Source: Candidatus Zixiibacteriota bacterium
GTDB taxonomy: Bacteria > Zixibacteria > MSB-5A5 > UBA10806
Assembly: GCA_036481315.1 (NCBI GenBank)
Contig: JAZGHS010000212.1
Location: 22,363 to 86,362, forward strand
Direction: 5' to 3'
Length of the DNA: 64,000 nt
Shown here: positions 15,219-47,862 of the stretch, one piece after another
Numbering within the stretch: position 1 is the first letter of the stretch
Layout: each line of letters starts with the position of its first letter
The notes under the pieces: model-generated
What the model was told of the DNA's origin: nothing
The model's database searches: none
Seen by the model: only the letters and a program-made list of their open reading frames with translations
Made by a program: the position numbers and the translations under genes

Positions 15219-16706
15219 TTATTTAGATAATGACGTTTGCTGTAAATTCAATTTCGTCATGAACAGATTACGCTCTAGTGTGATAGCGCATTGGCTGGCA
15301 AGGGATACCATCGAACGAATAGCCTCTTTTTCTACGGGAATTGCCTTGCTGGGGGCGTCGACGAATAAAACGTATCGGACATCGCCTAAAATCCTGATAG
15401 GAATAGCGACGAATGCCAGCGGTTTAAGCCGCTCACCGTCATTGCTATTTTCAAAGGATTCTAAAAGCTCCCGGTTTTCATCGCCGACTGAAACAGCCTT
15501 CCCCTGTTCTCTCATCTCTTTAAATAGCCCGTTTTGAGCTGAAAAACAGAGTGCCTGTACTTCCTGTTGAGATTCCAGACCAAAACCGACCTTACCGGTA
15601 AAACTCTTCTTTTTCGGATCGAACGCGAAAAGAATTACGCGGCCCATTAGCAACCCCCGATAGACAGCTTCGCAGAAGACCTGTAATATCTCGTCGCTGG
15701 ATTTCGCTTCTAAAAGAGCGTCGGTAGCGTTATATAAAAACGAAAGCCGCATATCCCTACTTTTTATTTCCTGCTGCATCTTATCCGTGTCATCCTCGGC
15801 AAGTTTTGAGCTATCAAACATGCTCTCGATATCTACTTCCAGATCCTCCGCGATTTCCACCATCTGATCGCGGCAAACGGACAAAAGATCCATCATGTCG
15901 AATTTGGACACTTTGATTATTTTCTGGGTTTGCTTTATTAACGTGGCATATGTTGATGAATCCTGGGAGGTTTCACTCATTAGATAGGGGAAAATACGGT
16001 CGGCGAGGTATACGATATCTACCAACAGATCTCTCGATTTTTCGTCAGGTTGTTTTTTTACGCGATGATGCTTGGCGATCGGATTGATCAATTCAGGAGG
16101 GAGATTCCAACGTCGTGCCATAATGTCGCCCGCCCTCATATGGTCGATTCCCAGAAGTACCCTCTCCGTCTTATAGACGTCGTGCTGCCCTCCCTTGAGT
16201 TTGAGGATTTCATCATACTCTCTTGGAAACGCCCCGGCCAGCATTGGCTCACCTATATCGTGCATAAACCCCGAAATAAAAGCCAGTTCGATTAAATCAA
16301 ACTTGTTAATCTTCTCGCAAAGAAATTTCGCGATCAATCCGCAGCCCAGCGAGCGAATCCAGAACGCGATTATATCAAATTTACCGCATCTGGAAAGTTG
16401 ATTGACCATTTGATAAACGCCCATGGATACTGCAATATTACGGATAGGCCTAAAACCCATTAAGACAATCGCCCGTGTAACGGTACAGATCTTCCTCGAT
16501 TGCCCCCGATAGAATACAGAGTTTGCCATTCTAAGAACTCGACTGGTAAGTTGATGATCGGAAATAATGCAGTTAGCAAGATCCGCGGCTGACGCGTTGG
16601 GATCTTCCGAGATTCGCTTGATCCGAATGATCACCTGTGGAAGCGATTGAAGATTTGAGAACCGCTCCAATCTCTTCTTAATTTCATTATCTTTCAGAGC
16701 TTTCAT
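15219..16706 (-). CDS. HDOD-domain signalling protein with a C-terminal GAF-like region
   Basis: HD-related segment ...GFMHDIGEPMLAGAFPREYDEI... typical of HDOD. Confidence 0.55.
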   Translation of the reverse strand: MKALKDNEIKKRLERFSNLQSLPQVIIRIKRISEDPNASAADLANCIISDHQLTSRVLRMANSVFYRGQSRKICTVTRAIVLMGFRPIRNIAVSMGVYQMVNQLSRCGKFDIIAFWIRSLGCGLIAKFLCEKINKFDLIELAFISGFMHDIGEPMLAGAFPREYDEILKLKGGQHDVYKTERVLLGIDHMRAGDIMARRWNLPPELINPIAKHHRVKKQPDEKSRDLLVDIVYLADRIFPYLMSETSQDSSTYATLIKQTQKIIKVSKFDMMDLLSVCRDQMVEIAEDLEVDIESMFDSSKLAEDDTDKMQQEIKSRDMRLSFLYNATDALLEAKSSDEILQVFCEAVYRGLLMGRVILFAFDPKKKSFTGKVGFGLESQQEVQALCFSAQNGLFKEMREQGKAVSVGDENRELLESFENSNDGERLKPLAFVAIPIRILGDVRYVLFVDAPSKAIPVEKEAIRSMVSLASQCAITLERNLFMTKLNLQQTSLSK

Positions 16707-17053: not shown

Positions 17054-19468
17054 ATGACTAAGATCGAAACATTGGAAAAAATAAAATGCTACCATTGCGG
17101 CGACGATTGCCGTGAATCCGATATTTCCATCGATAATAAATATTTCTGTTGTTCGGGATGCAGGTTTGTCTACGAGCTTTTTCGCGGGAACAAACTCGAC
17201 GGGTACTATCGCCTTAACGCTAATCCGGGAGTAAACAGGCGTGTCGGAGCCAGATCCGATCGCTTCGCCTGTCTTGAAGATCGGGATATCGCCCGAAAGC
17301 TCGTCGATTTCGCTGACGACAAGATAAATCGTGTCACTTTCCATATCCCGGGGATTCATTGCTCGTCGTGCGTATGGCTTCTTGAAAACCTGAACAGGCT
17401 CCACCCCGGCATACCTCTTTCCAGGGTAAACTATATGCGCAAAGAGGTATCGCTGACCTTCATCCCCGAACAAATCTCCCTCCGCGAAGTTGTAGAACTG
17501 CTGTCCTCGGTTGGCTACGACCCGGAAATCAATTTAAGAAATCTCGAGAGGAAAACAGTCGGCATGCCGAAAGACCGTCTATATACCAGGCTTACGGTTG
17601 CCGGGTTCTGTTTCGCCAATATCATGCTTTTCAGTTTTCCGGAATATTTCGACGCCGCGCAAATAGCACCGAAATTCAGAAATTTCTTCGGTTTTCTAAA
17701 GGTTGCTCTGGCCCTGCCGGTCTTCTTTTATAGCTCAGCCGTTTTTTTCAAATCGGCTTATCACGGTCTTCGCCAAAGGATAGTCAATATGGACGTACCC
17801 ATATCGCTGGGTATCCTTATGCTTTTCGCGCGATCGTTTTACGAGCTTTTCAGCGCTACAGGTATCGGTTATATGGATTCGTTCACCGGGTTGGTTTTCT
17901 TCCTTCTCATCGGGCGCGTTTTTCAGAAGAAGACTTACCAGAGGTTATCGTTCGACCGCGATTATAAATCTTACTTCCCCATCTCCGTAAACCGCAAAGA
18001 GGGTAATACGGAAATTCCCGTTGCCGTAAACAGGCTTGGTATCGGCGATAGGATCATTATCCGCAACAAGGAACTGGTCCCCGCCGATTCGGTTCTGCTC
18101 GAGGGTAATGGACAATTCGATTACAGTTTCGTCACCGGCGAATCGCAACCGCTTGAGAAAAAACCAGGCGATATAATCTACGCCGGAGGAAGGATCGCCG
18201 GAAAAGCGGTCGAGCTCGAGGTGATCAAAAAGGTATCCGAAAGCTACCTGGTGGAGCTCTGGGGCGACAACATTTTCAATCGAACCGAACGGACGGGTAT
18301 AGAGAGCTTATCGAATACAATCAGCAAATATTTCACCGTCGCCGTGATTACATTATCGATCGCGACCGCGGTATATTGGTATTTCGTCGATCCATCGGTG
18401 GCCGCCAACGCCGCCACCGCTGTTTTGATAATCGCCTGCCCCTGCGCCCTTGCCCTTTCGACCCCTTTCACGTTGGGAACAGCGACAAGAATACTGGGCC
18501 GTAACGGCTTCTTTTTAAGAAACAGCAGAATAGTGGAATCTTTGGCCGGAATCAACTCGATCGTATTCGATAAAACCGGCACGCTCACCAGGACAGGTGA
18601 ATCGAAAATTAAATTTATTGGCGTGGATCTTTCCGCCAGACAGCGCGCGATTGTTAAATCGATCACCGGGCAATCGTCTCATCCATTAAGCAGGAAAATT
18701 TCCCGCCTGTTTTCCGATGATCCCGTCGCCAACATCGAATCGTTCGAGGAATTTCCCGGGCTGGGGCTTTCGGGTGTAATTGACGATTCGACCGTTAAAA
18801 TAGGATCGGCTGAATGGATCGGATTAACAAACTCGGAACAACAATCAAGCGATAACTTCAAAACAAGAGTCTATTGCTCAGTAAATGATAACATTCTCGG
18901 CTATTTCTCTTTCACCAACGTGTACCGGGATGGTCTCGAATCGCTGATAAACTCTTTGAGATCGAAATTTCGATTATACCTTCTCTCCGGTGATAACGAC
19001 GGCGAAAGAGAAAATATGAAAAGACTTTTCGGCGACGATTCGCGAATGCTTTTCAATCAATCTCCACACGATAAATTGGAATTCGTAAAACAACTTCAAT
19101 CGGGAGGTGATAGAGTCGCCATGCTGGGCGATGGTCTTAACGACGCGGGATCGTTGAAACAGAGCGATATCGGGATCGCCGTCACGGTGGATACATCGTC
19201 GTTCTCTCCCGCCAGCGACGCTATCCTCGATTCGAACAGCCTGCATGTTTTTGATAAATTAGTCTTATTATCGATAAAATGTCTGCGGGTAATCAAAATT
19301 AGTTTCGGTATTTCGTTTCTATATAATATCATTGGTCTGAGTTTCGCTGTATCAGGGACGATTTCGCCCCTTTTATGCGCGGTACTGATGCCGTTAAGTT
19401 CGGTTTCGGTGGTTCTTTTTACTACCCTGACGATTGCTTTCCTCGCCAGGAGGTTGGAACTGTACTGA
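17054..19468 (+). CDS. ccoI: copper-translocating P1B-type ATPase CcoI/FixI
   Basis: N-terminal CYHCGDDC...CCSGC metal-binding domain; DKTGTLT phosphorylation site; GDGLNDAGSL hinge; CPC (IACPCALAL). Confidence 0.8.
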   Translation: MTKIETLEKIKCYHCGDDCRESDISIDNKYFCCSGCRFVYELFRGNKLDGYYRLNANPGVNRRVGARSDRFACLEDRDIARKLVDFADDKINRVTFHIPGIHCSSCVWLLENLNRLHPGIPLSRVNYMRKEVSLTFIPEQISLREVVELLSSVGYDPEINLRNLERKTVGMPKDRLYTRLTVAGFCFANIMLFSFPEYFDAAQIAPKFRNFFGFLKVALALPVFFYSSAVFFKSAYHGLRQRIVNMDVPISLGILMLFARSFYELFSATGIGYMDSFTGLVFFLLIGRVFQKKTYQRLSFDRDYKSYFPISVNRKEGNTEIPVAVNRLGIGDRIIIRNKELVPADSVLLEGNGQFDYSFVTGESQPLEKKPGDIIYAGGRIAGKAVELEVIKKVSESYLVELWGDNIFNRTERTGIESLSNTISKYFTVAVITLSIATAVYWYFVDPSVAANAATAVLIIACPCALALSTPFTLGTATRILGRNGFFLRNSRIVESLAGINSIVFDKTGTLTRTGESKIKFIGVDLSARQRAIVKSITGQSSHPLSRKISRLFSDDPVANIESFEEFPGLGLSGVIDDSTVKIGSAEWIGLTNSEQQSSDNFKTRVYCSVNDNILGYFSFTNVYRDGLESLINSLRSKFRLYLLSGDNDGERENMKRLFGDDSRMLFNQSPHDKLEFVKQLQSGGDRVAMLGDGLNDAGSLKQSDIGIAVTVDTSSFSPASDAILDSNSLHVFDKLVLLSIKCLRVIKISFGISFLYNIIGLSFAVSGTISPLLCAVLMPLSSVSVVLFTTLTIAFLARRLELY

Positions 19469-19631
19469 TATGGAAGTTATTTTCGTTTTAATAGGATTCT
19501 CGCTTCTTTTGGCCGTGGGTTTCTTAGCCGCCTTTTTCTGGGCGGTGCGCGACGGTCAGTTCGACGATACCCATACGCCATCGATGAGGGTACTTTTCGA
19601 CGATACGCCTGAAAATAATATCGATAAATAG
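19434..19631 (+). CDS. ccoS: cbb3 oxidase maturation protein CcoS/FixS
   Basis: 65 aa with a single TM helix and a conserved WAVRDGQFDD...P..VLFDD tail; overlaps the ccoI 3' end. Confidence 0.7.
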   Translation: MLSSPGGWNCTDMEVIFVLIGFSLLLAVGFLAAFFWAVRDGQFDDTHTPSMRVLFDDTPENNIDK

Positions 19632-19651
19632 TAAATACGGAGAGCTGATGG

Positions 19652-21784
19652 ATGACAATTGAGACGGTCAATTACGATAACAGAATAGTTCGAAGTTTCG
19701 GTATCGCTACGCTGGTCTGGGGTTCGGTGGGGATGCTTGTCGGGGTGGTCATCGCCATACAGATGTTTTTTCCGGCTTTGAACCTCGGCCTTGCCTTTAC
19801 CACCTTCGGACGACTTCGCCCGCTTCACACCAACGCCGTAATTTTCGCCTTCGTGGGTAACGCCATTTTCATGTCGGTCTATCATTCCCTGCCGCGACTT
19901 TGCAAAGCCGAGATGTTCAATAAGGCCTTAAGTAAATTCCATTTCTGGGGATGGCAGGCAATTATCGTCGCCGCCACCCTGACCCTGGTAACGGGAATCA
20001 CCACCGGCAAAGAGTACGCCGAACTGGAGTGGCCGATCGATATCCTGATCGCGGTAGTCTGGCTCGCGTTTGGCGCGAACATGTTCGGAACCATTTTCAA
20101 ACGTAGAGAACAGCATATGTACGTGGCGGTCTGGTTCTATATCGCTACATTCATCACCGTTACGATCCTCCACGTAGTCAACTCGATCGAACTACCTGTA
20201 TCATTTTTAAAAAGCTATCCGGTCTATGCCGGCGTTCAGGACGCCCTAGTGCAATGGTGGTACGGCCACAACGCGGTCGCCTTCTTTTTAACAACTCCAT
20301 ATCTCGGCATGATGTATTACTACCTGCCCAAAGCGGCCAACAGGCCGGTCTTCTCCTACAGGCTTTCCATAGTCCACTTCTGGGCGCTCATATTTATCTA
20401 CATTTGGGCCGGACCGCATCACCTGCTCTACTCGGCAATCCCCGACTGGGTTCAATCATTGGGCACCGTTTTCTCCATCATGCTCATCGCGCCGTCGTGG
20501 GGCGGTATGCTTAACGGCCTGCTTACGTTACGCGGAGCGTGGGATAAGGTACGAACAAGCCATGTCCTGAAATTTATGGTGGTAGCGATTACCGCCTACG
20601 GCATGGCCACCTTCGAGGGGCCGATGCTCGCGTTGAAAAACGTAAACGCCCTCTCCCATTTCACCGACTGGACGATAGCCCATACACATGTGGGGGCGTT
20701 AGGATGGAACGGTTTTCTGACTTTCGGGATTTTGTACTGGCTTATACCTCGTCTGTACGGAACGAAACTGTATTCGGATAAAATGGCCAACGCTCATTTC
20801 TGGATCGGTTTTCTGGGCATTCTGATCTATGTGATACCAATGTATTTCGCCGGGATAATCGAGGGTTTGATGTGGAAAGAGTTCACTCCCGACGGTTTCC
20901 TGCGCTACCCTAATTTCCTTGAGACGGTGCTTCAGGTAATTCCGATGTATATCATCCGGGCTGTGGGCGGAACGCTCTTTTTAATCGGAATGCTGTTGAT
21001 GACATTCAATCTCTTCAAAACAATAAGACTGGGATCGCTTATAGCCGAGGAAAAGGTCGAAGTCCCCGCCCTGGAAAACAACCGCGAAGAAATATACAAT
21101 CGCCGCAATTTCCACAGGTGGATCGAGAGACGTCCGGTGAAGTTTATCCTGGCCGCCACGGTCGCGGTATTGATAGGCGGGATTGTCGAAATGGTTCCGA
21201 CCTTCTTGATAAAATCGAATATCCCGACCATATCAAGCGTGAAACCCTACACGCCGCTGGAACTTCAGGGAAGGGATATTTACATAGCAGAGGGATGCTA
21301 CAACTGCCATTCTCAAATGATCAGACCTTTCAGATCGGAAACCGAACGTTACGGCGAATATTCCAAAGCGGGTGAATATGTTTACGATCATCCGTTCCAA
21401 TGGGGATCTAAACGCACCGGCCCCGATCTGATGCGGGTGGGAGGTAAATACCCCGATGCCTGGCATTATGGCCACATGATCGATCCCCCCTCGATGTCGC
21501 CCGGTTCGATAATGCCGCCGTATCCGTGGCTTGCCAACAACGAACTCGATATCGGTTCCACTCCGGCAAAGATTAACGCGATGCGGAAACTCGGCGTACC
21601 CTATCCGGAAGGCTACGAGAATATAGCAATCGAGGATCTTAATTCCCAAGCCAGGCAGATTGTCGGTATTTTAGGCGAGGCCGGTATCGAAATAAAAACC
21701 GATAGACAGATAATCGCCCTTATCGCCTATCTGCAAAGGATGGGGACAGACATCAAAGTCCAGAGGGAAGGGGGAGCGCGATGA
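19652..21784 (+). CDS. ccoN: cbb3-type cytochrome c oxidase, fused subunits I and II (CcoNO)
   Basis: 710 aa. Haem-copper oxidase helices with conserved His. C-terminal CcoO moiety with CYNCHSQ and GPDL..VGGKY..WHYGHMIDP. Confidence 0.85.
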   Translation: MTIETVNYDNRIVRSFGIATLVWGSVGMLVGVVIAIQMFFPALNLGLAFTTFGRLRPLHTNAVIFAFVGNAIFMSVYHSLPRLCKAEMFNKALSKFHFWGWQAIIVAATLTLVTGITTGKEYAELEWPIDILIAVVWLAFGANMFGTIFKRREQHMYVAVWFYIATFITVTILHVVNSIELPVSFLKSYPVYAGVQDALVQWWYGHNAVAFFLTTPYLGMMYYYLPKAANRPVFSYRLSIVHFWALIFIYIWAGPHHLLYSAIPDWVQSLGTVFSIMLIAPSWGGMLNGLLTLRGAWDKVRTSHVLKFMVVAITAYGMATFEGPMLALKNVNALSHFTDWTIAHTHVGALGWNGFLTFGILYWLIPRLYGTKLYSDKMANAHFWIGFLGILIYVIPMYFAGIIEGLMWKEFTPDGFLRYPNFLETVLQVIPMYIIRAVGGTLFLIGMLLMTFNLFKTIRLGSLIAEEKVEVPALENNREEIYNRRNFHRWIERRPVKFILAATVAVLIGGIVEMVPTFLIKSNIPTISSVKPYTPLELQGRDIYIAEGCYNCHSQMIRPFRSETERYGEYSKAGEYVYDHPFQWGSKRTGPDLMRVGGKYPDAWHYGHMIDPPSMSPGSIMPPYPWLANNELDIGSTPAKINAMRKLGVPYPEGYENIAIEDLNSQARQIVGILGEAGIEIKTDRQIIALIAYLQRMGTDIKVQREGGAR

Positions 21785-21975
21785 TCGGCGAGGTACTACA
21801 AACGATAAAGGGAATTGCACTGTTTCCAACCGTATCCCTGGTGATCTTCTTTGGATTTTTCGTCTCTATGATCGTATGGGTGGCCGGTCTGGATAAAGGT
21901 TACCGCGAGAAAATGAAAAGCATGCCCCTTAACGAGGACGGCAGCTTAAGCGACGGAGATCGGGATGATGGATAA
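21781..21975 (+). CDS. ccoQ: small membrane subunit, CcoQ/FixQ-like
   Basis: 64 aa, one TM helix, acidic tail; 4-bp overlap with ccoNO, 11-bp overlap with ccoP. Confidence 0.45.
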   Translation: MIGEVLQTIKGIALFPTVSLVIFFGFFVSMIVWVAGLDKGYREKMKSMPLNEDGSLSDGDRDDG

Positions 21976-22636
21976 AGACGATAAATTATTGGACCACGAA
22001 TACGATGGTATCCGAGAACATGATAACGAGCTTCCGCGATGGTGGCTTTACCTGTTCTATTTCACAATCGTCTGGGGAATCATATATCTTCTTTACTTCC
22101 ATGTTCTAGATTTCGGATATCTTTCAGCGGACGAATATTACAAGGAAATGAACCCGGCGTACGTAAGAGCAGGCGAGGGCGATACCAAATTGTTAGGAGT
22201 ATTACCCGAATATCATTCGCCGTATTACAATCCCAGCGGTGACATTACTCCCGCGTCCGCGGCCCAGCGGCAACCGGCAGTCGCCTATATCGAGGAAACC
22301 GCCGCCGCCGATACGATCGTATACACCCTATTGGCAGATCAACAATCGCTCGATGAGGGAAAAGCGATATTTGATAAAAACTGCGCCCAATGTCATGGCA
22401 AAGTCGGGCAGGGAGGGATCGGACCCAACCTCACCGACAATTACTGGATTCATGGCGGCTCCTTTACCGATATCGTCAAAATAATAAAATACGGTTTCCC
22501 GTCGAAAGGGATGATCGCCTGGCGGGGGACATTAAAACCCGGGCAGATTTTACAGGCGGCCAGCTATATCGAAACTATTCGGGGGACAAATCCCTCTAAA
22601 GCCAAGGCTCCGCAGGGTGAGCTTTACTCAGAGTAA
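21965..22636 (+). CDS. ccoP: cbb3 oxidase subunit III CcoP, mono-haem variant
   Basis: FixP N-terminal motif EYDGIREHDNELPRWW. Only one CxxCH (CAQCHG) in 223 aa. Confidence 0.7.
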   Translation: MMDKDDKLLDHEYDGIREHDNELPRWWLYLFYFTIVWGIIYLLYFHVLDFGYLSADEYYKEMNPAYVRAGEGDTKLLGVLPEYHSPYYNPSGDITPASAAQRQPAVAYIEETAAADTIVYTLLADQQSLDEGKAIFDKNCAQCHGKVGQGGIGPNLTDNYWIHGGSFTDIVKIIKYGFPSKGMIAWRGTLKPGQILQAASYIETIRGTNPSKAKAPQGELYSE

Positions 22637-22738
22637 TCGGGATGGGCGTTTCCGATGACACTACCAGGTTAAAGCCGACGGGAAGGTAGTCGAGGAAATC
22701 AAAACCTCTTTTATGGGTCCCGGTCCACGGAGGAATAA

Positions 22739-23200
22739 GTGACAGCTCTTTCTAAAAAAAGCTGGGGAACAGCTATCGCTGTTTTATTTGGATCGTTCGC
22801 CGTATTTATCCTGGCCCTTGTAGGTTTCGCGTCTTTGCAGCGATTTAATCTTGTGGAAATAAATTATTACGAGCAGGAATTAAAATATCAGGAGAAAATC
22901 GATAAGCTTAACCGGACTCATGCTATTCCCGATGGAATAACTCTGTTTCACAATCAACGAACCGGAATATTAAGCGTTATCTTCGATTTTGACGATTCGA
23001 CATCTACTATCGACGGTACCATCACATTTTTCAGACCTTCTGATTCAGCGCTCGATTTCATTGTACCGGTTAAGCCTGAAGAAAGCGGTATTCAATCAAT
23101 AAACATTACCGGACTTGCAAACGGACTCTGGAGAATCAAGGTGGATTGGCGTGTCGCCGGTGAAGATTATTATTTCGAGGATATTCTAGTAATAGATTAA
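22739..23200 (+). CDS. ccoH: CcoH/FixH-like assembly protein
   Basis: N-terminal TM helix plus a periplasmic beta-rich domain; its position in the cco cluster. Confidence 0.5.
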   Translation: MTALSKKSWGTAIAVLFGSFAVFILALVGFASLQRFNLVEINYYEQELKYQEKIDKLNRTHAIPDGITLFHNQRTGILSVIFDFDDSTSTIDGTITFFRPSDSALDFIVPVKPEESGIQSINITGLANGLWRIKVDWRVAGEDYYFEDILVID

Positions 23201-23206
23201 TGTAAA

Positions 23207-23965
23207 TTGATTATGGAAATCTGGACCGGATTCATTTTAGGACTGCTGGGAAGCCTCCACTGCGCCGGCATGTGCGGCCCCATAGTACTTGCGATCCCCT
23301 GGGGTTACGATAGAAAATTTGAATCTATTCTTAAACGACTCCTCTATCATACGGGGCGGATTTTTACATACTCGATAATTGGTTTGGTAGTTGGCTATAT
23401 CGGCGGGGCGATCGCTATTACAGGCTACCAGAACGTTTTATCCATCACGGTCGGGACTATTATTATAATCGCGTTTCTAATCCCTGCACGTTTCAAAGAG
23501 CGAATCATCACGGCTATCGGAATAAGCAAAATTTATAAGCAAATAAAAAAGCTCTGGGGATCTCTTTTTGGAATTAATTCTTTATTGTCAATATTCGTTC
23601 TGGGGATACTAAACGGGTTTTTACCCTGCGGGCTTGTCTATATCGCCTTGGCCGGGGCGGTGACGACCGGAGGATCATTGCAGGGGATGGCTTACATGAC
23701 CGCGTTCGGGCTTGGAACCGCTCCGATCCTTCTCGCCCTCTCATTTTTAGGCAACATTATCGGTCGAAACGCTCGTAAAATCATCGGCAAGCTGATTCCT
23801 GTAGCGGCAGTTGTTCTTGCCGTGTTATTCATTCTACGGGGGCTTTCCCTTGGAATTCCGTACATCAGCCCGAAAACAATGACAGATTCTAAAGGCGCCA
23901 CAAATATGGAATGCTGTCATCCTGCAAAACCGCCCGTAGAAAACTCGGTCGAGTCAGAACGATAG
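23207..23965 (+). CDS. DsbD_2-like polytopic membrane protein (HCAGMCGP motif)
   Basis: LHCAGMCGP and LPCGLVY motifs, 6 TM helices; family commonly found adjacent to cco clusters. Confidence 0.45.
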   Translation: MIMEIWTGFILGLLGSLHCAGMCGPIVLAIPWGYDRKFESILKRLLYHTGRIFTYSIIGLVVGYIGGAIAITGYQNVLSITVGTIIIIAFLIPARFKERIITAIGISKIYKQIKKLWGSLFGINSLLSIFVLGILNGFLPCGLVYIALAGAVTTGGSLQGMAYMTAFGLGTAPILLALSFLGNIIGRNARKIIGKLIPVAAVVLAVLFILRGLSLGIPYISPKTMTDSKGATNMECCHPAKPPVENSVESER

Positions 23966-24175: not shown

Positions 24176-25078
24176 ATGATTAATAATAAATTAAATAAAT
24201 TTATCGCGGTAATTATAATTACAGTAATCTTAACCGGTTGCGAATCGAAGAAATCCCGGGAATTAATTTCCGCCGCTGATTTCCTTCCAGAAAAAATCGA
24301 ATCCGCGGAGATCGAACGATCCTCCGAGGTGAGAACTTTCGTCGGCGAATCGCTTTATGAGTATATCAACGGCGGCGCGGAGATCTATCATAAATATAAA
24401 TTTATAGAGGTCCTCACAGCCGATTACAATACAGGCGATATCGAAATGACCGTCGATATATTCAAGTTCGAAGACGGCGATCATTCCTACGGGCTTTACG
24501 CGACACATCGACCGCCCGAACCCGATTTTATCAATCTCGGCGCGGAGGGATTTAGAACCGATGTCACGGTAGATTTTGTCAAAGGCCAGTTTTATGTAAA
24601 AATAATAGGCTTTGAAGAGGTTGAACAAACCCCGGTAAGCGTGATTACCCTAGCCCGGGAAATCGAGAAATTAATCCCAGGTGACAAATTCCTTCCCCGT
24701 CCGTTCGCCCTTTTCCCGGTCGGAGAGATTTTGGAGGCCAACGACAAGATGTTCGCCGACTCCTTTTTAGGGCAGCGGTTTCTAACCTATTTTTTCGTCC
24801 GGAAATATCAGGTGGACAACGATACCCTAACCCTTTTTATCACCGAGAAAGACGCTGGCGGTAAATTCTCGCGCTGGTTCGAGCTGGCGTCCGAAGAGGG
24901 GATGGCCGAACCGGGTCCGGAGGAGCTTCCTTTCGACGATGGCATGGTATTGGTGATGGATTATGTTTATTACGGCAAGATTATCGCCGGATTCAAAGAC
25001 GGCAGGCTATTGGGTATTACCAATTACGATGACGATAAAAGTGACTTTTTAATCGAATGGCTCGAATCGCTGCCTTGA
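24176..25078 (+). CDS. lipoprotein of unknown function; paralog of 56138..57049
   Basis: Lipobox LTGC. Shared motif Y(E/R)YINGGAE(I/V)Y with the 56138 product. Confidence 0.5.
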   Translation: MINNKLNKFIAVIIITVILTGCESKKSRELISAADFLPEKIESAEIERSSEVRTFVGESLYEYINGGAEIYHKYKFIEVLTADYNTGDIEMTVDIFKFEDGDHSYGLYATHRPPEPDFINLGAEGFRTDVTVDFVKGQFYVKIIGFEEVEQTPVSVITLAREIEKLIPGDKFLPRPFALFPVGEILEANDKMFADSFLGQRFLTYFFVRKYQVDNDTLTLFITEKDAGGKFSRWFELASEEGMAEPGPEELPFDDGMVLVMDYVYYGKIIAGFKDGRLLGITNYDDDKSDFLIEWLESLP

Positions 25079-25107
25079 AATAAGAAAATTAAAACGCTGG
25101 CTTATTA

Positions 25108-26325
25108 TCAAGCGTACATCGATTTCAACTCACCTATATTCCTATCGATATCTATGGCTCTGATACAACGGGCGCCGCATGATGAGCATAAACCGCATAC
25201 CCCGATGCTTTTGTTTTTCGGGATATCATCAATAGTGACCCGGGCGTGAACAAGGTTGCCATAGGAAGCGGCGTACATATGTGTGCGCATCAACGTGGGG
25301 ATATCCACACCGTTTGGGCAGGTCGGTTCGCATTGACGGCATTGACGGCAGAATCCCATGCCAAGTTTGATATTGTTGTCTGATAAAAGTTCCTCTTCCT
25401 CAGGCGTATATTCGAGATCGGAAGCGACCGAGAAATCCTCGCGCATATGTTGGAAATTATCGAAACCGGGGATCGACGTCGAGATACTCTTATTACGCAA
25501 AACCCATTTTAATGAGGCTTTCATTATGGTCGAGCTATCGAATTTACGTGAAGCATCGGACGACGCCAATCGTTGTCCCCCGGATTGCGTTTTCATAGCT
25601 ATTAAGCCCACCCCTTTGGACGCGGCGTTTTCGATAGCGTTCAGCATTCCGTCATCGTCGGCCATAGTCACGTTGAATCCCGTCAGCACTACATCGTAGA
25701 ATCCGCCCTCGGCCACCGCGTTTATAACGTCGGTCATGTTTTCATGGGTAGAGACGGCAGCGAACCTGATCTTGCCCTGTTTCTTCAGGGTCGTTAACGC
25801 GTCTTGAATATTGTCGTCGTTGACATCGTCGACGCTGGCAACGGAGTGAATATACAGAATATCGATATAATCGGTTTTCAGGCGGCTTAAACTCCCTTCG
25901 CAAAGGTTGATCAGTTTAGCCCGAACCTGTTTCGATGACATTTCGCCCCTTTGTGCCGGCCTCAATTCCTTCGTGCCGACTATAACCTTATCTCTTACTC
26001 CCAACCTGCTGATTACCTCTCCCAACATCTGCTCGTTTCGGCCGTACTGATATCTGGCCGCCGTATCGAAATGCCGAATACCTGCCTCATAGGCGGCATG
26101 AACGATCTCGGGATTGTCGGCATTCATCACACCCATGCTGACAACCGGAATGCTCAAGCCGGTCTTTCCCAGAGTGCGATGGATAATCTCATCTGTCCCT
26201 GTTTTCCCGTCCGACCCCTTCTGGGCGAAGGCAAGCCCGGGGGAGATGCCGAAAACGCCCGCCGCGGCAAGGCCGGTTGTGGCCGTAGAAAGAAATCCTC
26301 TTCTCGTAACTTTAGATTTTCCCAT
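25108..26325 (-). CDS. Tat-exported aldo/keto reductase with a C-terminal 4Fe-4S ferredoxin-like domain
   Basis: Twin-arginine signal VTRRGFLSTATTGLAAAGVFG; AKR core; C-terminal CRQCRQCEPTCP ... CGLCSSCGARC. Confidence 0.7.
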   Translation of the reverse strand: MGKSKVTRRGFLSTATTGLAAAGVFGISPGLAFAQKGSDGKTGTDEIIHRTLGKTGLSIPVVSMGVMNADNPEIVHAAYEAGIRHFDTAARYQYGRNEQMLGEVISRLGVRDKVIVGTKELRPAQRGEMSSKQVRAKLINLCEGSLSRLKTDYIDILYIHSVASVDDVNDDNIQDALTTLKKQGKIRFAAVSTHENMTDVINAVAEGGFYDVVLTGFNVTMADDDGMLNAIENAASKGVGLIAMKTQSGGQRLASSDASRKFDSSTIMKASLKWVLRNKSISTSIPGFDNFQHMREDFSVASDLEYTPEEEELLSDNNIKLGMGFCRQCRQCEPTCPNGVDIPTLMRTHMYAASYGNLVHARVTIDDIPKNKSIGVCGLCSSCGARCIRAIDIDRNIGELKSMYA

Positions 26326-33115: not shown

Positions 33116-35614
33116 TTATTTCATTTCAGAATTAGCATCTTTAGATTTATCATCCGATAATATGTCATTTCCTCTTCTTGGCGACGGGGATCCCGGAGGG
33201 CAACTCGGGCAGGAAAATAGCTCCGGGTTTCCAGTCTTCAGTTTAGAGAATCCCGCTATCACGTCCGCGACATTAAAGCCGCAGGAGGCGTTCAAATCCA
33301 TCGCGACCGCCCAGGTATTTCCGGATCCGGGGGGGCATTCACAAAGAAGAAAAGCATCGGGCAAACCGGTTTTCAGCTTGGAAAAGGCGCTGATTATATC
33401 GGCCACATTCATTGATTCACTACCGTTGTAATCGCCGATTACATACGACCCGCATCCGCCTGTTTCGCTTAAGAATATGTAATTTGTTTTAATCTCGATA
33501 TCGGAACCGTAGGCGTTGGTAGCCGTGAGAGTTACTGTAAAATGGTCAAGTTCATTGTAAACATGGGTAGGATTAGCAAGATCACTCGTGCCGCCATCCC
33601 CGAAATCCCATAACCAGCTTGTAGGGCCGTTAATGGATAGATCGAAGAAACTTACCTCCATAGGAGGGATACCCGCGAGGGGAGAGCCCACGAAATCGGC
33701 GATAGGGGCGGCGAGGATAACCTCGATATAATCTGGTTTGCTTTCCATATCCGTACCGTAACTGTTGGTAGCCGTTAAAGTGACCGTATATGTTCCCGCA
33801 TCTTGGTAAACATATGTGGGATTAGTTAAATCGCTCGTACCCCCATCTCCGAAATCCCATGACCAGCTTGCGGGGGCGTTCGTCGAAAGGTCGCTAAAGC
33901 TCACCTCCAGGGGTACGCCACCGTTTACCGGATCTCCGCTAAAATTCGCCACCGGGGCAAGACCGTATACGATATTAATCACTGTATCCCGCGCGACACT
34001 TACATTCGTGAAGGTGACAGTATCGGGTATATCCGAAAGTGAATCGGGGCTGTAGGTAAGATCGTAAGTCTCGGGCTTGACCAGAATTTCATAGAATCCT
34101 GTGACGTCCGATTTATTTCCGGGAGTGTGAACCTCCTGTTGAGTAATACTTTCGATCGCCGTGATCCTGACATCTACTTCCGGAGTACCGTTCTCCAGAG
34201 TAATTGTCCCGGAGACAACCATTCCGGTATCCAGAGAAACGTCGTATTGGATATCAGCGAAAATCGATTGATCAAACAGCTTTGTTGCCGCCAGTAAGCG
34301 GATTCTCGGCGGCTCGAATTCCAGATGATATGTTCCCTCCGCAAGAACGGTTTGATATTGGCCCAACCCATCTGTATGATCGCCCACCAGCGGAACACTT
34401 AGATCACTCAATACATCGATAGCGTCGATATCCACATCTACGACGCTCGCCCCGAACGAATTCAGCACCGTTCCGTATAGAAGAATTCCGGTTGAAAGAA
34501 CAACATCCAGCTGTGTATCGCTATTCACGGCAACCGAATCCTCCCTGATAGGCGCAAGGTAGGGAGGAACAACAGGTGGCTTATAAACAACATCATACAT
34601 CCCGAACTGTGGGAGAACCACCTGATAAAAACCGAATTCATCTGTATCATCGCCGGGAGTGAATAGATCGACGCCGTTATTCGAGTGCCTGATATCGAGA
34701 TCCACACCGGTAACACCCGCCCCGTCAGGATCCCTTACCGTTCCATAAAAAAGAAAACCGGGTTCGATTACAAAATTCTGGGTTATATCACCGAAAACCG
34801 CTACCCCGTAGACGATTCCGGGCAATAACCGAGTTTCCGGAAGCGGAGCTACATTTATTTCATATGTTCCCTGCGGAACGAGCATTTGATAATCGCCGTT
34901 ATCATCGGTGTTATCGCTTGGAGTATAGACTTTAATGCCTGTCAGGCTGTCTTTAGCGTCGAGATCGGCGTTAGTAACCGGATCGTCGTTTAGATCTATT
35001 ACCGTTCCGGTGATAAAAAAGCCGTCTTGAAGCGTAATATCGAGCTCGGTATTGGAGTTGATCGCCATATTTTCAATCTCGACGGCAACGTACCGTGGAT
35101 TGGATATGCCGCCTCGATACCGATAGGTCACTCGAAACAGACCCGCGGGTAGAATAATTTCGTAAAGACCGTCAACATCCGTGTTATCGCCGGGAGTAAA
35201 CAATTGGACTCCTGTAATTTGATCATATACGTTTAAATCGACATCCTCTATACCATTCCCCTGGGAATCGAAAACGGTACCTGTAAATAAATGCCCGTTT
35301 TGAAGTGTTATATCGAGCGTTACGTTTGAATTTACAGACACATCCGTTAAATATACTGGTATTAATCCCGTGGAAGTTCCTGGCCTGAAACTTATATCGT
35401 AAGTACCGGCATCGACAGAAACGCTGTAAAATCCCAAAATATCCGTAGTATCAATATACGGGCCTATTGGTGAACCGTCTGGCGCGTAAAGCTGCACGGC
35501 TACGTTGTCTTCATGCCCACCGTTGGCGTCGACTGTACCCGAAATGGATTGAGCAAACGCCGAAGATGATAAAGCCATAATTATCATTAGAAGTGTTTTC
35601 CTGATGTCGAGCAT
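33116..35614 (-). CDS. secreted multi-repeat protein: about 6 carboxypeptidase-regulatory-like beta-sandwich repeats, 2 PKD domains, C-terminal Cys-containing dockerin-like module
   Basis: Signal peptide. Repeats with the D-x-D...TG....TP.DNTD..G.Y motif. Two WDFGDGGTSDL PKD domains. C-terminus GDYNGSESMNVADIISAFSKLKTGLPDAFLLCECPPGSGNTWAVAMDLNASCGFNVADVIAGFSKLKTGNPELFSCPSCPP. Confidence 0.6.
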   Translation of the reverse strand: MLDIRKTLLMIIMALSSSAFAQSISGTVDANGGHEDNVAVQLYAPDGSPIGPYIDTTDILGFYSVSVDAGTYDISFRPGTSTGLIPVYLTDVSVNSNVTLDITLQNGHLFTGTVFDSQGNGIEDVDLNVYDQITGVQLFTPGDNTDVDGLYEIILPAGLFRVTYRYRGGISNPRYVAVEIENMAINSNTELDITLQDGFFITGTVIDLNDDPVTNADLDAKDSLTGIKVYTPSDNTDDNGDYQMLVPQGTYEINVAPLPETRLLPGIVYGVAVFGDITQNFVIEPGFLFYGTVRDPDGAGVTGVDLDIRHSNNGVDLFTPGDDTDEFGFYQVVLPQFGMYDVVYKPPVVPPYLAPIREDSVAVNSDTQLDVVLSTGILLYGTVLNSFGASVVDVDIDAIDVLSDLSVPLVGDHTDGLGQYQTVLAEGTYHLEFEPPRIRLLAATKLFDQSIFADIQYDVSLDTGMVVSGTITLENGTPEVDVRITAIESITQQEVHTPGNKSDVTGFYEILVKPETYDLTYSPDSLSDIPDTVTFTNVSVARDTVINIVYGLAPVANFSGDPVNGGVPLEVSFSDLSTNAPASWSWDFGDGGTSDLTNPTYVYQDAGTYTVTLTATNSYGTDMESKPDYIEVILAAPIADFVGSPLAGIPPMEVSFFDLSINGPTSWLWDFGDGGTSDLANPTHVYNELDHFTVTLTATNAYGSDIEIKTNYIFLSETGGCGSYVIGDYNGSESMNVADIISAFSKLKTGLPDAFLLCECPPGSGNTWAVAMDLNASCGFNVADVIAGFSKLKTGNPELFSCPSCPPGSPSPRRGNDILSDDKSKDANSEMK

Positions 35615-35648
35615 TCTCTTTCCTCCGAAGAATATATTACCTAAGATG

Positions 35649-37622
35649 CTATCGTACCAATAACATATTATGGGTTGAAGAACCCTTTGAAGTTTTCAAT
35701 TGATAAAAATACAAACCGCTGGCAACCTGCTCCCCACGGCCGTTATCGCCATCCCAGCTGATCGTATGGTAACCGGGTGATTTAATTCCTTTATCGATCT
35801 TTTTCACACGTTGACCGAGACTATTATAAATAATAAATGAAACATCGGTCTGAACAAATAAAACATACGATATCATGGTTCCCGCGTTAAACGGATTGGG
35901 AAAATTATCATTCAATATAAAACTGATCGGGGGCGCGCTTCCGCCCTCTGTTAGTAAAATTGTTACCGATGAATCCGACGAAATATTAAATCCCGGCAAT
36001 AACTGATTGTCCAAAGCCGTTCCGACGGGCGGCGTGACCTCTATCGTATACACGCCCGAGTGCACGGTAATGTCTGCCGTACCGTCAATATCGGTATTAT
36101 CATGCGGGGTGAAGATTGTAGACCCGGAACTTTCCAATACAAAATCGAAATCGGCGGCCTCCACCGGTGACCCCCTCGGGTCGAGCACAAGTGCGGAAAA
36201 TATATAGCCCTCTTTTAATATAATATCGTTCCAGGTAGAGTCCTGATCTATAAAGACTTTTCCCAGATTCTCACCTACGTAACGGCTTCCCCTGAGAGGC
36301 TCGATCTCGGCGTTGAAACCACCGATCGGTACAAGTATGCTGTAATTCCCCAGAGAATCGGTGATGTTATCCGCGACGTAAATTTTCGAGCCAGCCACCG
36401 TATCGGAGAAATTTATCTCGATATCCACGAGTCCGGCGCTATCGGTATTTATAATTCTCCCCGATATATTGACTTTGGGGACCTCGGGCAGGAGAAAATC
36501 CATACTGGTATCCGCGAAAATGGTTACACCGTTCAATACCAGCCGATCGTAAATAGAACCGGGAGGCGGCTGAACCCTGATAGTGTAGATATCCGCCGGA
36601 ATCGCAATTGTGGTTACGCCCATACTGTCAGTCTCATCGTTCGGAGTGAAAAGTTTCGCCCCCGTACTCTCCTGAATAATATCGAGATCGGCGCCCGCTA
36701 TGGGATTACCGGTTGAGTCATGGACAAACGTAGAAAGAAGCCATCCCGCCTCCAAAATTTGATTCCGCGCGATATCGGCGTCGACAACGAAACTATCCAA
36801 TACTACACCAACGTAAGGGCTTCCGAGAGGAGGTTCATAGCGAAGCCTATACATCCCCGCGGGAACCGCCACGTTGTGATAACCGATCATATCGGTCTCG
36901 TTATTCGTAAGGTAAATTTTCTCACCTGTTATCATCGCTCTAAGATCTATACTGATATTTTCAAGCCCCTGGCCGAGTTCATCGGTTACATATCCGCTTA
37001 ATAGCATCCCCTCCGATAAGGAAACATCGATAACAGTATCGGCATAAATAGATAGGGAATCCATCTGCATTCCGAGCCAACGGGTTCCCGCCGGCGGTTG
37101 ATATCTCAGCCTGTAATTCCCCTGCGGAACCACAATCCAGTAATTGCCCAGACTGTCGGTTTTATCGTTTGGCGTATAGATCCTCTCCCCGGTTGATAAA
37201 TTATCGGCGTCCAGATCAACTCCGAGCACCGGCGAACCGTTACCGATAACCACCCCGTGAATTATTTTACCGAATCCAAGCGTGACATCAATCCGCCGAT
37301 CCACATATATTGAATCGTTAAACCTCCGGTGCCCCAAAAGATTCGTCCCAGGCGGAGGACCGTAAGAGATATTATAAACTCCGTTAGGTACCCAGATGGC
37401 GTAATATCCATCCTGATCGGTATTATCTCCTGGTGTGGGCACTCGCTCACCGGTTACGGCGTCATCGAAATCAAGATCGACATCGGCCACCGGGTTACCG
37501 TTAGGATCGTAAACAAACCCGGTAACATACGATATCAATGTGTCGGATACGCCTAAGCTTGCAAAGGCGAGGACTATCAAAATTCCGATAATCTTTAATA
37601 ATGTCGGTAAACGATGACTCAT
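35649..37622 (-). CDS. secreted multi-repeat protein (about 6 CarboxypepD_reg-like repeats) with a T9SS C-terminal sorting domain
   Basis: Same repeat family as 33116..35614. Canonical CTD FPNPFNAGTMISYVL...IYNSLGQRV...SGLYFYQLKT...NMLLVR. Confidence 0.65.
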   Translation of the reverse strand: MSHRLPTLLKIIGILIVLAFASLGVSDTLISYVTGFVYDPNGNPVADVDLDFDDAVTGERVPTPGDNTDQDGYYAIWVPNGVYNISYGPPPGTNLLGHRRFNDSIYVDRRIDVTLGFGKIIHGVVIGNGSPVLGVDLDADNLSTGERIYTPNDKTDSLGNYWIVVPQGNYRLRYQPPAGTRWLGMQMDSLSIYADTVIDVSLSEGMLLSGYVTDELGQGLENISIDLRAMITGEKIYLTNNETDMIGYHNVAVPAGMYRLRYEPPLGSPYVGVVLDSFVVDADIARNQILEAGWLLSTFVHDSTGNPIAGADLDIIQESTGAKLFTPNDETDSMGVTTIAIPADIYTIRVQPPPGSIYDRLVLNGVTIFADTSMDFLLPEVPKVNISGRIINTDSAGLVDIEINFSDTVAGSKIYVADNITDSLGNYSILVPIGGFNAEIEPLRGSRYVGENLGKVFIDQDSTWNDIILKEGYIFSALVLDPRGSPVEAADFDFVLESSGSTIFTPHDNTDIDGTADITVHSGVYTIEVTPPVGTALDNQLLPGFNISSDSSVTILLTEGGSAPPISFILNDNFPNPFNAGTMISYVLFVQTDVSFIIYNSLGQRVKKIDKGIKSPGYHTISWDGDNGRGEQVASGLYFYQLKTSKGSSTHNMLLVR

Positions 37623-37636
37623 ATCACTTCTCTAAC

Positions 37637-39451: not shown

Positions 39452-40758
39452 CTTTTTTCTCCGCTTAAAATGTTTTTCCCCTCTTGTGAACTATTTATTT
39501 CAAGTAATAGATTTTTCGCTATGCTTTTCCACCTGGGGCGAAGCGAATATAACCCCGCGAGACGTAATAGCGCCGCCGCCCTCCACCAATTCACCCGTTT
39601 TGTAAATTCTTTACCCGCCGATTCGTAGCCGCTCACAAACGCTTCCGATCCGTCTATGATCATCATCTCGTTCTCGGGCGATTGATACCGTCGTAAATCC
39701 AAATGTGCCATGAAATTCCCATAATCTAAAGCCGGGTCGGATAAGGCCATGTTATCGAAATCGAGCAGGGTTGCCCGACCGGGAGAATGAAGAGTCTGTT
39801 TGTCGTAAAAATCGCGATGAACGGGCCCGACCGCATAATCATCGCCGATTCTTCCCCGCGTAATCCCCGAGTAGGCGTCGCCGAACGCCTCACCAAGTTC
39901 GGGAAAGACACTATTTATAATATCGACTATTTTACTCAAACTGTCAAGCTCGTCGTCGGCTGTGTAATAGGGCAGATCGCCTAACGAAATCGAATGCAGT
40001 TTGCGAATCAATCGTCCCGCTTCATGGCAGGATTCGGGAAAAGATCGATTTCCGATTAACGAATGCAAAGACCGACCCGAAACGAATTCCATGAGTATAA
40101 TCCCGTGATCATTATCGCAACCCAGATACTCCGGTACAGTCAAACCATCGGATGAATCCGCGGTCATTTCGGTTGCGGAAAACTTTTCGAAGATTTTCAA
40201 AGCAGCCGCGATCTTTTTAGGACGTGCTATTTTGGCGACAACCTTGATTCTCTCGATACCGTCATTTTGTTTCATATCAAGTGTATATTCGAACACGCAT
40301 CGACGTTCAAGACGGTAGCCAAGCAAACGGCATTCGATCACATCGAACTTTTTTCCCGCGAGAAAGGGAATCGCCCCAAGACGTTTTTTAGGTTTACCCG
40401 TGACAACAAAATCGGGAAGATATTTGAGTTTAGGATCGTAAGGGAATACAGGGACGACCAAACCTATATCATCGAATATTATGAGGTCTTGCCGAGGCGC
40501 TAATGTTTTACCGGGCAGTGTCTGATCAAGCCCCAGCAAGTGACCCCATAATATAATTTTCTCTTCGCCTTTTTCCGTCTTGTCTATTATCAAATTGTAA
40601 CTGATAGAAAATCCACCGTCATTCCGAGGGAAAGCCCTGGGGATATACAGATATTTCAATTCCCCTTCTTTTCCCAAAAATCGATCGATCTCCTTTTGAA
40701 AACGGGATTTCATCCGATCGATATCTGTCGCGGCTTTAAAATTAGAAACTATTCCCAT
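39448..40758 (-). CDS. APH/choline-kinase-fold phosphotransferase (kinase B)
   Basis: Catalytic loop GPVHRDFYDKQ and a DFD metal-binding motif (LLDFDNM); paralog of the upstream gene. Confidence 0.55.
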   Translation of the reverse strand: MGIVSNFKAATDIDRMKSRFQKEIDRFLGKEGELKYLYIPRAFPRNDGGFSISYNLIIDKTEKGEEKIILWGHLLGLDQTLPGKTLAPRQDLIIFDDIGLVVPVFPYDPKLKYLPDFVVTGKPKKRLGAIPFLAGKKFDVIECRLLGYRLERRCVFEYTLDMKQNDGIERIKVVAKIARPKKIAAALKIFEKFSATEMTADSSDGLTVPEYLGCDNDHGIILMEFVSGRSLHSLIGNRSFPESCHEAGRLIRKLHSISLGDLPYYTADDELDSLSKIVDIINSVFPELGEAFGDAYSGITRGRIGDDYAVGPVHRDFYDKQTLHSPGRATLLDFDNMALSDPALDYGNFMAHLDLRRYQSPENEMMIIDGSEAFVSGYESAGKEFTKRVNWWRAAALLRLAGLYSLRPRWKSIAKNLLLEINSSQEGKNILSGEKR

Positions 40759-42119: not shown

Positions 42120-42176
42120 TTTTAATATGCTCCCGGTTTCCTTTAGTGATTTTCTCCGCCGATGTATCGACCGGTT

Positions 42177-45298: not shown

Positions 45299-45319
45299 AT
45301 TATCTCTCGATTTCCATTC

Positions 45320-47847: not shown

Positions 47848-47862
47848 AAAGACCTCGGTTTT

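Follow-up and report, generated by a model that had tools for sequence, protein, structure and literature searches.

The forward strand of the 64-kb stretch of DNA analysed here (the window), which belongs to a Zixibacteria metagenome-assembled genome (MAG), carries the genes ccoI-ccoS-ccoNO-ccoQ-like-ccoP-ccoH-DsbD_2 between positions 17054 and 23965, and the locus is a standard high-affinity (cbb3) O2-respiration operon of the Bacteroidota/Ignavibacteriota/Zixibacteria type. It is very probably a normal FCB-type cbb3 operon, with the ancestral order ccoI-ccoS-ccoNO-ccoQ-ccoP-ccoG-ccoH-DsbD_2, from which a deletion of ~1.3 kb has taken almost all of ccoG in this lineage. Three of the four features deemed odd in a preliminary description of this DNA are the norm for the operon type, and the loss of ccoG is its sole peculiarity. 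The gene order and identities claimed in that description are borne out: every ORF lies at the position given there, and the identities are based on profile matches.

In cbb3 oxidases of this type, CcoNO reduces O2 at the haem b3-CuB site and receives electrons via its fused c-haem, and the mono-haem CcoP is a membrane-anchored subunit for electron entry. The Cu(I) to be inserted as CuB is exported from the cytoplasm by CcoI, assembly is assisted by CcoS and CcoH, and CcoG is a cupric reductase providing Cu(I). From the ccoGHIS assembly set, the window encodes CcoH (FixH), CcoI (P1B Cu-ATPase), and CcoS (FixS), and CcoG is present only as remnants.

The first gene, ccoI (17054-19468, +), encodes an 804 aa Cu-translocating P1B ATPase of the CopA2/FixI type with a Cys-rich metal-binding domain at the N-terminus, an HMA domain, and a CPC motif; its Pfam domains are PF00122 (E1-E2_ATPase), PF00702 (Hydrolase), PF12156 (ATPase-cat_bd), and PF00403 (HMA), and its score against TIGR01525 (340 bits) is marginally short of the cut-off of 346. 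The gene ccoS (19470-19631, +) codes for a small cbb3 maturation protein matching PF03597 (FixS) with 76 bits and TIGR00847 with 52.2 bits (cut-off 28.35); the mechanical ORF (19434-19631) starts from TTG 19434, and the FixS match starts at ATG 19470, one base past the ccoI stop, which is the likely start. In ccoNO (19652-21784, +, 710 aa), COX1 and FixO lie within a single ORF, so that catalytic subunit I (haem b / haem b3-CuB) is fused to the mono-haem cytochrome c subunit II, whose single CxxCH is located in the O part. This protein passes the curated cut-offs for the fused form of a C-family (cbb3-type) haem-copper oxidase, with 1267 bits against NF011053 "bifunctional subunit I/II" (cut-off 1080), 664 bits against TIGR00780 (cut-off 583), and 253 bits against TIGR00781 (cut-off 201). 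The ccoQ-like gene (21781-21975, +) encodes a small single-helix membrane protein of 64 aa without a match in Pfam or NCBIfam; a custom HMM, trained on this protein together with its counterparts from four Zixibacteria relatives, detects a homologue at the equivalent position in nearly all of 80 genome loci. Finally, ccoH (22739-23200, +) encodes a FixH-family assembly factor of 153 aa (PF05751, 52.8 bits) and has a GTG start with GGAGG upstream. A scan for promoters and terminators between 16600 and 24300 gave counts not clearly above the shuffled expectation.

The locus was compared with 84 related loci, namely 80 genome loci from Ignavibacteriota, Bacteroidota, and Zixibacteria and four close Zixibacteria relatives, in which the usual order is ccoI-S-NO-Q-P-G-H-DsbD_2. 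In particular, ccoI is likewise the first gene in the four relatives and in most genome loci, and all related loci that cover that region have a fused CcoNO, in agreement with the proposal of the N/O fusion as an FCB-group trait. In every comparison locus holding both ccoP and ccoH, ccoG is located between them. The closest relative, L004, whose CcoP is 81% identical, shares the upstream genes with the window, and L005 (CcoP 70% identical) shares the downstream DUF6599, AKR-Fer4, and TPR genes; both have a ccoG of 470-473 aa between ccoP and ccoH, as is also the case for ccoG in the other two close relatives, L001 and L003.

In the window this position is occupied by a spacer of only 102 nt (22637-22738), which retains a few codons from the start of ccoG and the last 24. 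Remnants of both ends of the gene, recognized by tblastn and blastn against L004, extend over 22642-22742 (+). The 5' remnant begins at ATG 22642, extends to ~22669 ("MGVSDDTTR"), and continues out of frame until TAG 22687-22689; it is weakly conserved, with 18 of 33 nt identical. The 3' remnant (22668-22742, "VKADGKVVEEIKTSFMGPGPRRNK*") lies in a different reading frame and is identical to L004 at 64 of 74 nt including the stop codon, a divergence slight enough to mark the deletion as recent; as in the relatives, its TGA and the GTG start of ccoH overlap. The tblastn match with the CcoG of L004 covers window positions 22668-22733 (residues 450-471 of 473, 86% identity, E = 9e-6). Collinear blastn blocks place window 22305-22634 on L004 8467-8796 and window 22668 onward on L004 10142 onward, so that the junction falls at ~22667-22670 and ~1,310 nt are missing. 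Among the 75 loci with ccoP and ccoH, a scar in place of ccoG is unique to the window. Judging from these alignments, the gap is a deletion scar and the loss is specific to this lineage.

The source being a MAG, the organism could possess an intact ccoG, with the contig misassembled or representing a minority deletion variant; a search of the JGI metagenome collection for the 28-mer spanning the junction found no independent second instance, and an event as recent as the little diverged 3' remnant implies is also in keeping with such a variant. However, the junction shows a microhomology of only 2-3 nt and no repeat able to collapse an assembly graph, and its flanks are collinear with the relatives on both sides. 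CcoP and DsbD_2 of the window are 100% identical to the NCBI proteins MEE9554982.1 and MEE9554984.1 of a candidate division Zixibacteria MAG, and this numbering leaves space for one annotated protein between them (ccoH), so that in the deposited contig, too, a single protein is annotated there. An artefact is thus quite unlikely, and a genuine deletion is the preferred reading.

The absence of ccoG from the cluster, reported in the preliminary description, extends to the whole window: a CcoG-like ORF, defined by Fer4_5/Fer4_18 Fe-S domains together with a FixG_C domain, was found in the 64 kb neither by motif scan, nor by tblastn with four CcoG proteins, nor by Pfam scans of the flanking ORFs. 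A ccoG lying just outside the cluster is therefore refuted for the window, where the CxxCxxCxxxC motif occurs in one ORF, an aldo-keto-reductase/ferredoxin fusion at 25108-26325 (-). This ORF is also found beside the operons of relatives that bear ccoG. Some bacteria have more than one ccoG/yccM-like gene, and since the window covers no more than 64 kb, the genome could encode a functional CcoG or a paralogue elsewhere, the copy in the cluster having been redundant and hence deleted. This explanation is unlikely, given that the window has no CcoG-like ORF and that the MAG to which it belongs, whose CcoP and DsbD_2 were retrieved at 100% identity, gave no near match to the CcoG of L004, a result that speaks against an orthologue-like copy and not against a divergent paralogue. 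In the same homologue search no NCBI protein was more than 61% identical to L004 CcoG, and the best NCBI-sourced match (61%) is located on a contig of another cco cluster.

With one operon gene already reduced to a remnant, ccoG could also be the first gene to go in an operon that is decaying as the lineage abandons aerobic respiration. Against this, the seven remaining genes are full length in comparison with their orthologues, are free of internal stops, and retain every catalytic and ligand motif, which makes general decay extremely improbable; the lengths of CcoI, CcoNO, CcoP, CcoH, and DsbD_2 are 804, 710, 223, 153, and 250 aa in the window versus 803, 710, 220, 153, and 251 aa in L004. 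The significance of the deletion in this otherwise intact operon is modest, as a clean and recent lineage-specific loss of ccoG. In Rhodobacter capsulatus the loss of CcoG, a cupric reductase, lowers cbb3 activity and does not abolish it (PMC7558416), and the window, as a natural experiment, is consistent with a CcoG that is helpful but dispensable. The oxidase would still be produced without CcoG, and Cu(I) could be supplied by non-specific reductants or by an already reducing habitat. For annotators, the case is a caution that a "compact" cluster may be a deletion.

The gene ccoP (21965-22636, +) encodes a membrane-anchored mono-haem cytochrome c subunit III of 223 aa, composed of FixP_N and one Cytochrome_CBB3 domain. 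The haem motif is C140-A-Q-C143-H144 and the axial ligand is probably Met183; across 26 homologues, C140, C143, H144, and M183 never vary. The score of 103 bits against the dihaem equivalog TIGR00782, below the cut-off of 180, indicates that this is not a dihaem CcoP. A six-frame regex scan of the 64 kb confirmed the single CxxCH of this subunit, the motif being present in CcoO and CcoP only, once in each. A frameshift masking a second haem domain was considered and rejected: the second CxxCH that its correction would reveal was looked for in all six frames and not found, the gap between ccoP and ccoH is 102 nt, and the lengths of the best 120 CcoP homologues all fall within 205-243 aa, each with FixP_N and a single cytochrome c domain, so that the mono-haem form is not a frameshift artefact. 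Nor is it an oddity of this cluster, as had been supposed, since CcoP has a single CxxCH in 70 of 71 genome loci and in all four close relatives (74/75); the mono-haem CcoP is the normal form of the clade. The assignment of its haem domain was sought in a consistently better match to one of the haem domains of solved dihaem CcoPs: with the chains of 8smr and 8snh, the N-terminal haem domain scored 42-43 bits versus 31-33 bits for the C-terminal one, a preference that other dihaem CcoP structures contradict.

The FCB-type cbb3 operon, as found in Bacteroidota, Ignavibacteriota, Zixibacteria, and coral-associated Prosthecochloris (PMC10158934), shares with the window the gene order, the strand, the fused CcoNO, the mono-haem CcoP anchored by FixP_N, and a "TauE/DsbD_2" gene directly after ccoH, and differs in that ccoG of the window is reduced to a scar of ~100 nt. 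The extra TauE gene and a half-length CcoP have already been mentioned for green sulfur bacteria and Kangiella (PMC10158934, PMC6000758). In contrast, the proteobacterial ccoNOQP-ccoGHIS clusters, as in Rhodobacter capsulatus and Pseudomonas (3mk7, 6xkx, 8smr), have homologous CcoN, CcoO, CcoP N-terminal anchor, CcoH, CcoI, and CcoS, but their N and O genes are separate, they encode a dihaem CcoP, their assembly genes lie downstream of the structural ones, and ccoG is present.

The last gene of the operon, DsbD_2 (23213-23965, +; mechanical ORF from TTG 23207), encodes from its ATG a six-helix membrane protein of 250 aa that matches PF13386 with 157 bits (cut-off 24.9) over profile positions 2-198 of 199. 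The protein is named "sulfite exporter TauE/SafE" at NCBI; it matches PF13386 only and not the TauE profile PF01925 at E <= 0.01, and this database name is a mislabel that should not be taken as a function. The preliminary description had placed DsbD_2 in the position of ccoG, and had thus proposed a non-orthologous displacement in which it took over the function as well. In favour of this proposal, ccoG is missing, DsbD_2 is intact and kept, and its Cys/His/Met motifs may be redox- or metal-active. However, the co-occurrence of DsbD_2 with cco genes, analysed in the 84 loci, shows that it is terminal after ccoH in the presence of ccoG in 74 of 80 genome loci and in all four close relatives (78/84), and therefore it predates the loss of ccoG and does not occupy the slot of this gene, which is itself filled by ccoG remnants. 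Moreover, the window protein is indistinguishable in motifs and length from the DsbD_2 of ccoG-containing genomes. Displacement is hence very improbable, and DsbD_2 belongs to the operon as a further regular gene alongside ccoG rather than replacing it. Across the 80 genome loci it almost always adjoins ccoH, and it may act as a regular accessory factor tightly coupled to this gene. Two ccoH-DsbD_2 pairs (L067 and L086) are located away from cco genes, among unrelated housekeeping genes that give no functional clue.

The motifs of DsbD_2 make a role in thiol redox or copper handling a reasonable suggestion. The protein contains H16-C17-A-G-M20-C21-G-P23, L137-P-C139-G, G214-I-P-Y-I-S-P220, and a C-terminal C234-C235-H; HCxGMCGP and LPCG are invariant among the homologues, and the helices are broken at both Cys motifs. 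In the C-terminal tail of 82 homologues, CC is present in 26, CH in 30, a single Cys in 15, a Met/His-rich segment without Cys in 7, and none of these in 4; this variation favours Cu(I) handling over dithiol exchange. The membrane-embedded His/Cys/Met/Cys, together with the Pro-Cys, where helices 1 and 4 are broken, would form a putative Cu(I) site, of which the periplasmic Cys/His/Met tail would be the second part. Binding and passing on of Cu(I), favoured by motif chemistry and synteny, is the preferred mechanism, with roughly even chances of being correct, and a CcdA-like export of reducing equivalents is a possible but rather unlikely alternative.

The CcdA/DsbD thiol-disulfide transporters (PDB 5vkv) are characterized by a 3+3 arrangement of helices, in which helices 1 and 4 each bear one redox Cys, and by thioredoxin-dependent electron transfer. 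The fold of DsbD_2 is weakly CcdA-like, with 12% sequence identity, and a Foldseek comparison of its model with the PDB returned nothing significant; in contrast to the single Cys of CcdA/DsbD, helix 1 of the window protein has H-C-x-G-M-C, and a thioredoxin-like partner is not encoded nearby. With CcoA, the Cu importer that Rhodobacter capsulatus needs for the CuB of its cbb3 oxidase (PMC3266609, PMC5829832), no more than a functional analogy is possible, in that a membrane protein with Cu motifs of the Met/His type would be devoted to the biogenesis of cbb3; in fold and family (MFS) CcoA is unrelated to DsbD_2. In the literature searched, a functional study of a DsbD_2 protein from a cbb3 operon was not found.

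More speculatively, and with a low probability, DsbD_2, as a CcdA-like membrane protein, could be an unrecognised dedicated factor of cbb3 maturation, at least in the FCB group and in some Gammaproteobacteria (Kangiella). Together with CcoH it would serve as a relay linking its membrane core and the periplasmic tail, carrying either Cu(I) or the electrons with which Cu(II) is reduced; the ccoG deletion in the window would then show that this factor is able to sustain the supply of CuB without CcoG. DsbD_2-family proteins are sensible candidates for the next factor of cbb3 biogenesis or copper trafficking, a point that is general and not specific to the window. In Kangiella, too, a gene of the "sulfite exporter TauE/SafE family" is located at the end of the cluster (PMC6000758).

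The cbb3 oxidase cluster comprises seven genes, all on the plus strand, as defined by an ORF listing and profile scans of the window. ccoI (17054-19468), encoding a P1B ATPase with ATPase-cat_bd and HMA domains, is followed by ccoS (ATG 19470 to 19631; FixS match) and by ccoNO (19652-21784), a single 710-aa ORF that combines COX1 and FixO and scores 1267 bits against NF011053 (cut-off 1080). The ccoQ position is occupied by a 64-aa ORF (21781-21975) with no match in Pfam or NCBIfam; its product is recognisably conserved at the same position in Zixibacteria, Ignavibacteriota, and Bacteroidota loci. Then come ccoP (21965-22636; FixP_N and one Cytochrome_CBB3 domain), ccoH (22739-23200; FixH), and a terminal gene (23213-23965) for a PF13386 (DsbD_2) membrane protein (157 bits) with HCAGMCGP near its start. 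Scanned for motifs in all six frames, the 64 kb contains CxxCH once in CcoO, once in CcoP, and nowhere else, and the ferredoxin-type CxxCxxCxxxC is confined to an aldo-keto reductase fusion at 25108-26325 (-). Since ORFs, profiles, and motif scan agree, the cluster content reported in the preliminary description is correct.

The window CcoP and DsbD_2 proteins are 100% identical to MEE9554982.1 and MEE9554984.1 from a candidate division Zixibacteria MAG, and exactly one annotated protein fits between these accessions. Four Zixibacteria relatives (L001, L003, L004, and L005) were obtained via CcoP homologues, and all four have the gene order ccoI-ccoS-ccoNO-ccoQ-ccoP-ccoG-ccoH-DsbD_2. The CcoP of L004 is 81% identical to that of the window, and the upstream genes for an M1 peptidase and a membrane protein of about 291-292 aa are common to both; in L005, CcoP is 70% identical and the shared genes, encoding DUF6599, AKR-Fer4, and TPR proteins, lie downstream.

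Comparison with L004 reveals the remnants of ccoG between ccoP and ccoH. Two collinear blastn blocks link window 22305-22634 to L004 8467-8796 (the ccoP end) and window 22668 onward to L004 10142 onward (the ccoG end, then ccoH and DsbD_2). The L004 CcoG gives one significant tblastn match in the window, at 22668-22733, corresponding to residues 450-471 of 473 (86% identity, E = 9e-6). This 3' remnant is identical to L004 at 64 of 74 nt, and its TGA and the GTG start codon of ccoH overlap just as they do in the relatives, with GGAGG just upstream. The 5' remnant starts from ATG 22642 with MGVSDDTTR, similar to MSTPDDTAG of L004 (18/33 nt), and then reads out of frame as far as TAG 22687-22689; it does not share the frame of the 3' remnant. 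The missing stretch is about 1,310 nt, and the deposited annotation likewise has nothing encoded at the junction, which lies at about 22667-22670 and shows a microhomology of only 2-3 nt. Such a junction, known here from the assembled contig alone, is unlike what an assembler collapses; a search of the JGI metagenome collection for a second occurrence of the junction 28-mer found none. That the 3' remnant has diverged little suggests either that the event was recent or that the translation-initiation region of ccoH is under constraint. The remaining genes of the cluster are all full length relative to their L004 counterparts. As assembled, the cluster reads as a known operon type from which ccoG has been lost by simple deletion.

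The absence of ccoG from the cluster, noted in the preliminary description, extends to the whole 64-kb window, in which a motif scan, tblastn, and Pfam scans of the flanking ORFs found no CcoG-like gene beyond these remnants; a copy just outside the cluster is ruled out over the same range. When the L004 CcoG was used to search for homologues, the best NCBI-sourced match had 61% identity and came from a contig of another cco cluster, whereas the MAG's own CcoP and DsbD_2 surface at 100% in their respective searches, which makes an orthologue-like copy elsewhere in the MAG unlikely. A divergent paralogue may be present elsewhere, or a copy may be absent from an incomplete bin. CcoG is described in a review as an Fe-S cupric reductase of the membrane (PMC7558416); in its absence the oxidase would still be assembled, with Cu(I) possibly supplied by unspecific reductants or by a reducing habitat.

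The other features of the cluster belong to the operon type. A DsbD_2 alignment searched against one genome per species yielded 80 loci from Ignavibacteriota, many Bacteroidota orders, and Zixibacteria, which were annotated with HMMs made from the window proteins plus those of the four relatives. ccoG-ccoH-DsbD_2 is present in 74 of them, mostly within the complete eight-gene order, and no locus with ccoP and ccoH lacking an intervening ccoG was found among the 80. The six exceptions are three loci cut at contig ends, two ccoH-DsbD_2 pairs amid unrelated genes, and one DsbD_2 alone. On the survey and the four relatives, the N/O fusion, regarded from the outset as a lineage trait, the mono-haem CcoP, and the terminal DsbD_2 gene are standard anatomy. 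The co-occurrence of DsbD_2 with cco genes also shows that this protein accompanies CcoG, in the relatives as in the survey, and does not take its place as had been proposed. A terminal gene of this kind has already been noted in passing: a Kangiella cluster legend places it after ccoS (PMC6000758). The two isolated pairs, in Bacteroidota MAGs (L067:9548-10699 and L086:9489-10747), lie away from the cco structural genes, next to Usp, GNAT, cytidylate kinase, and PPK2 genes, suggesting that ccoH and DsbD_2 form a separable module.

Nor is the mono-haem CcoP an oddity of this cluster, a single CxxCH being found at 70 of 71 survey loci. The best 120 homologues are all 205-243 aa long with FixP_N and one cytochrome c domain, and an alignment of 26 of them shows no variation at C140, C143, H144, or M183; judged from these sequences, the mono-haem form is conserved and does not stem from a sequencing error. 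A second CxxCH hidden by a frameshift is ruled out by the six-frame scan. As to which haem domain is kept, the dihaem structures point both ways: for the mono-haem profile the better match is the C-terminal domain of CcoP in 6xkx/6xkw and 9g83, and the N-terminal one in 8smr/8snh. The TIGR00782 match of the window CcoP falls on the first domain. The exceptional locus, L065 of Pontibacter pamirensis (ccoP upstream of the match at 10001), encodes a 378-aa protein with two CxxCH that seems to be a dihaem variant arisen secondarily inside the mono-haem clade.

The uncharacterised, ccoH-linked DsbD_2 protein is the only broader lead and is not peculiar to the window; the literature searched yielded no paper on the family's part in cbb3 biogenesis. 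Among 58 homologues, the invariant or near-invariant residues are H16, C17, G19, M20, C21, G22, and P23; N134, G135, L137, P138, C139, and G140; G214, I215, P216, S219, and P220; and a C-terminal CC. An AlphaFold model (pLDDT 79, pTM 0.71) has six long helices, of which helices 1 and 4 break exactly at the two Cys motifs. Loops 1, 3, and 5 contain 4, 7, and 4 Lys/Arg; a by-eye reading under the positive-inside rule would thus put the N-terminus, loops 2 and 4, and the C-tail in the periplasm. In the region after GIPxxSP, the tails of 82 homologues carry CC (26), CH (30), one Cys (15), a Met/His-rich stretch with no Cys (7), or none of these (4). Tails in which Cys-Cys, Cys-His, and Met/His clusters replace one another are expected of a Cu(I) ligand set and not of a dithiol relay; the pattern therefore favours Cu(I) handling linked to CcoH, a role with roughly an even chance of being right, over a CcdA-like export of reductant, which seems rather doubtful.

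Between the gene for the membrane protein of about 291-292 aa and ccoI, the window carries a gene for a 495-aa HDOD/HD signalling protein with a weak GAF match (15219-16706, -), divergently transcribed from the operon. The same two flanking genes are only about 170 nt apart in L004, so this gene looks like an insertion in the window lineage; it might be a local regulator. Directly downstream of the operon (24176-26325), as in L005 (8337-10447), come a DUF6599 gene and a gene whose product has a Tat-like N-terminus and joins an aldo-keto reductase to a 2x[4Fe-4S] ferredoxin domain. Further on lies a long stretch of minus-strand genes (33116-49263) in which GC skew is strongly negative. Their products are PKD/CarboxypepD_reg surface proteins, an alginate-export-like porin, two APH-type kinases, an ABC exporter, and glycosyltransferases; the locus is probably one for exopolysaccharide or the cell surface.
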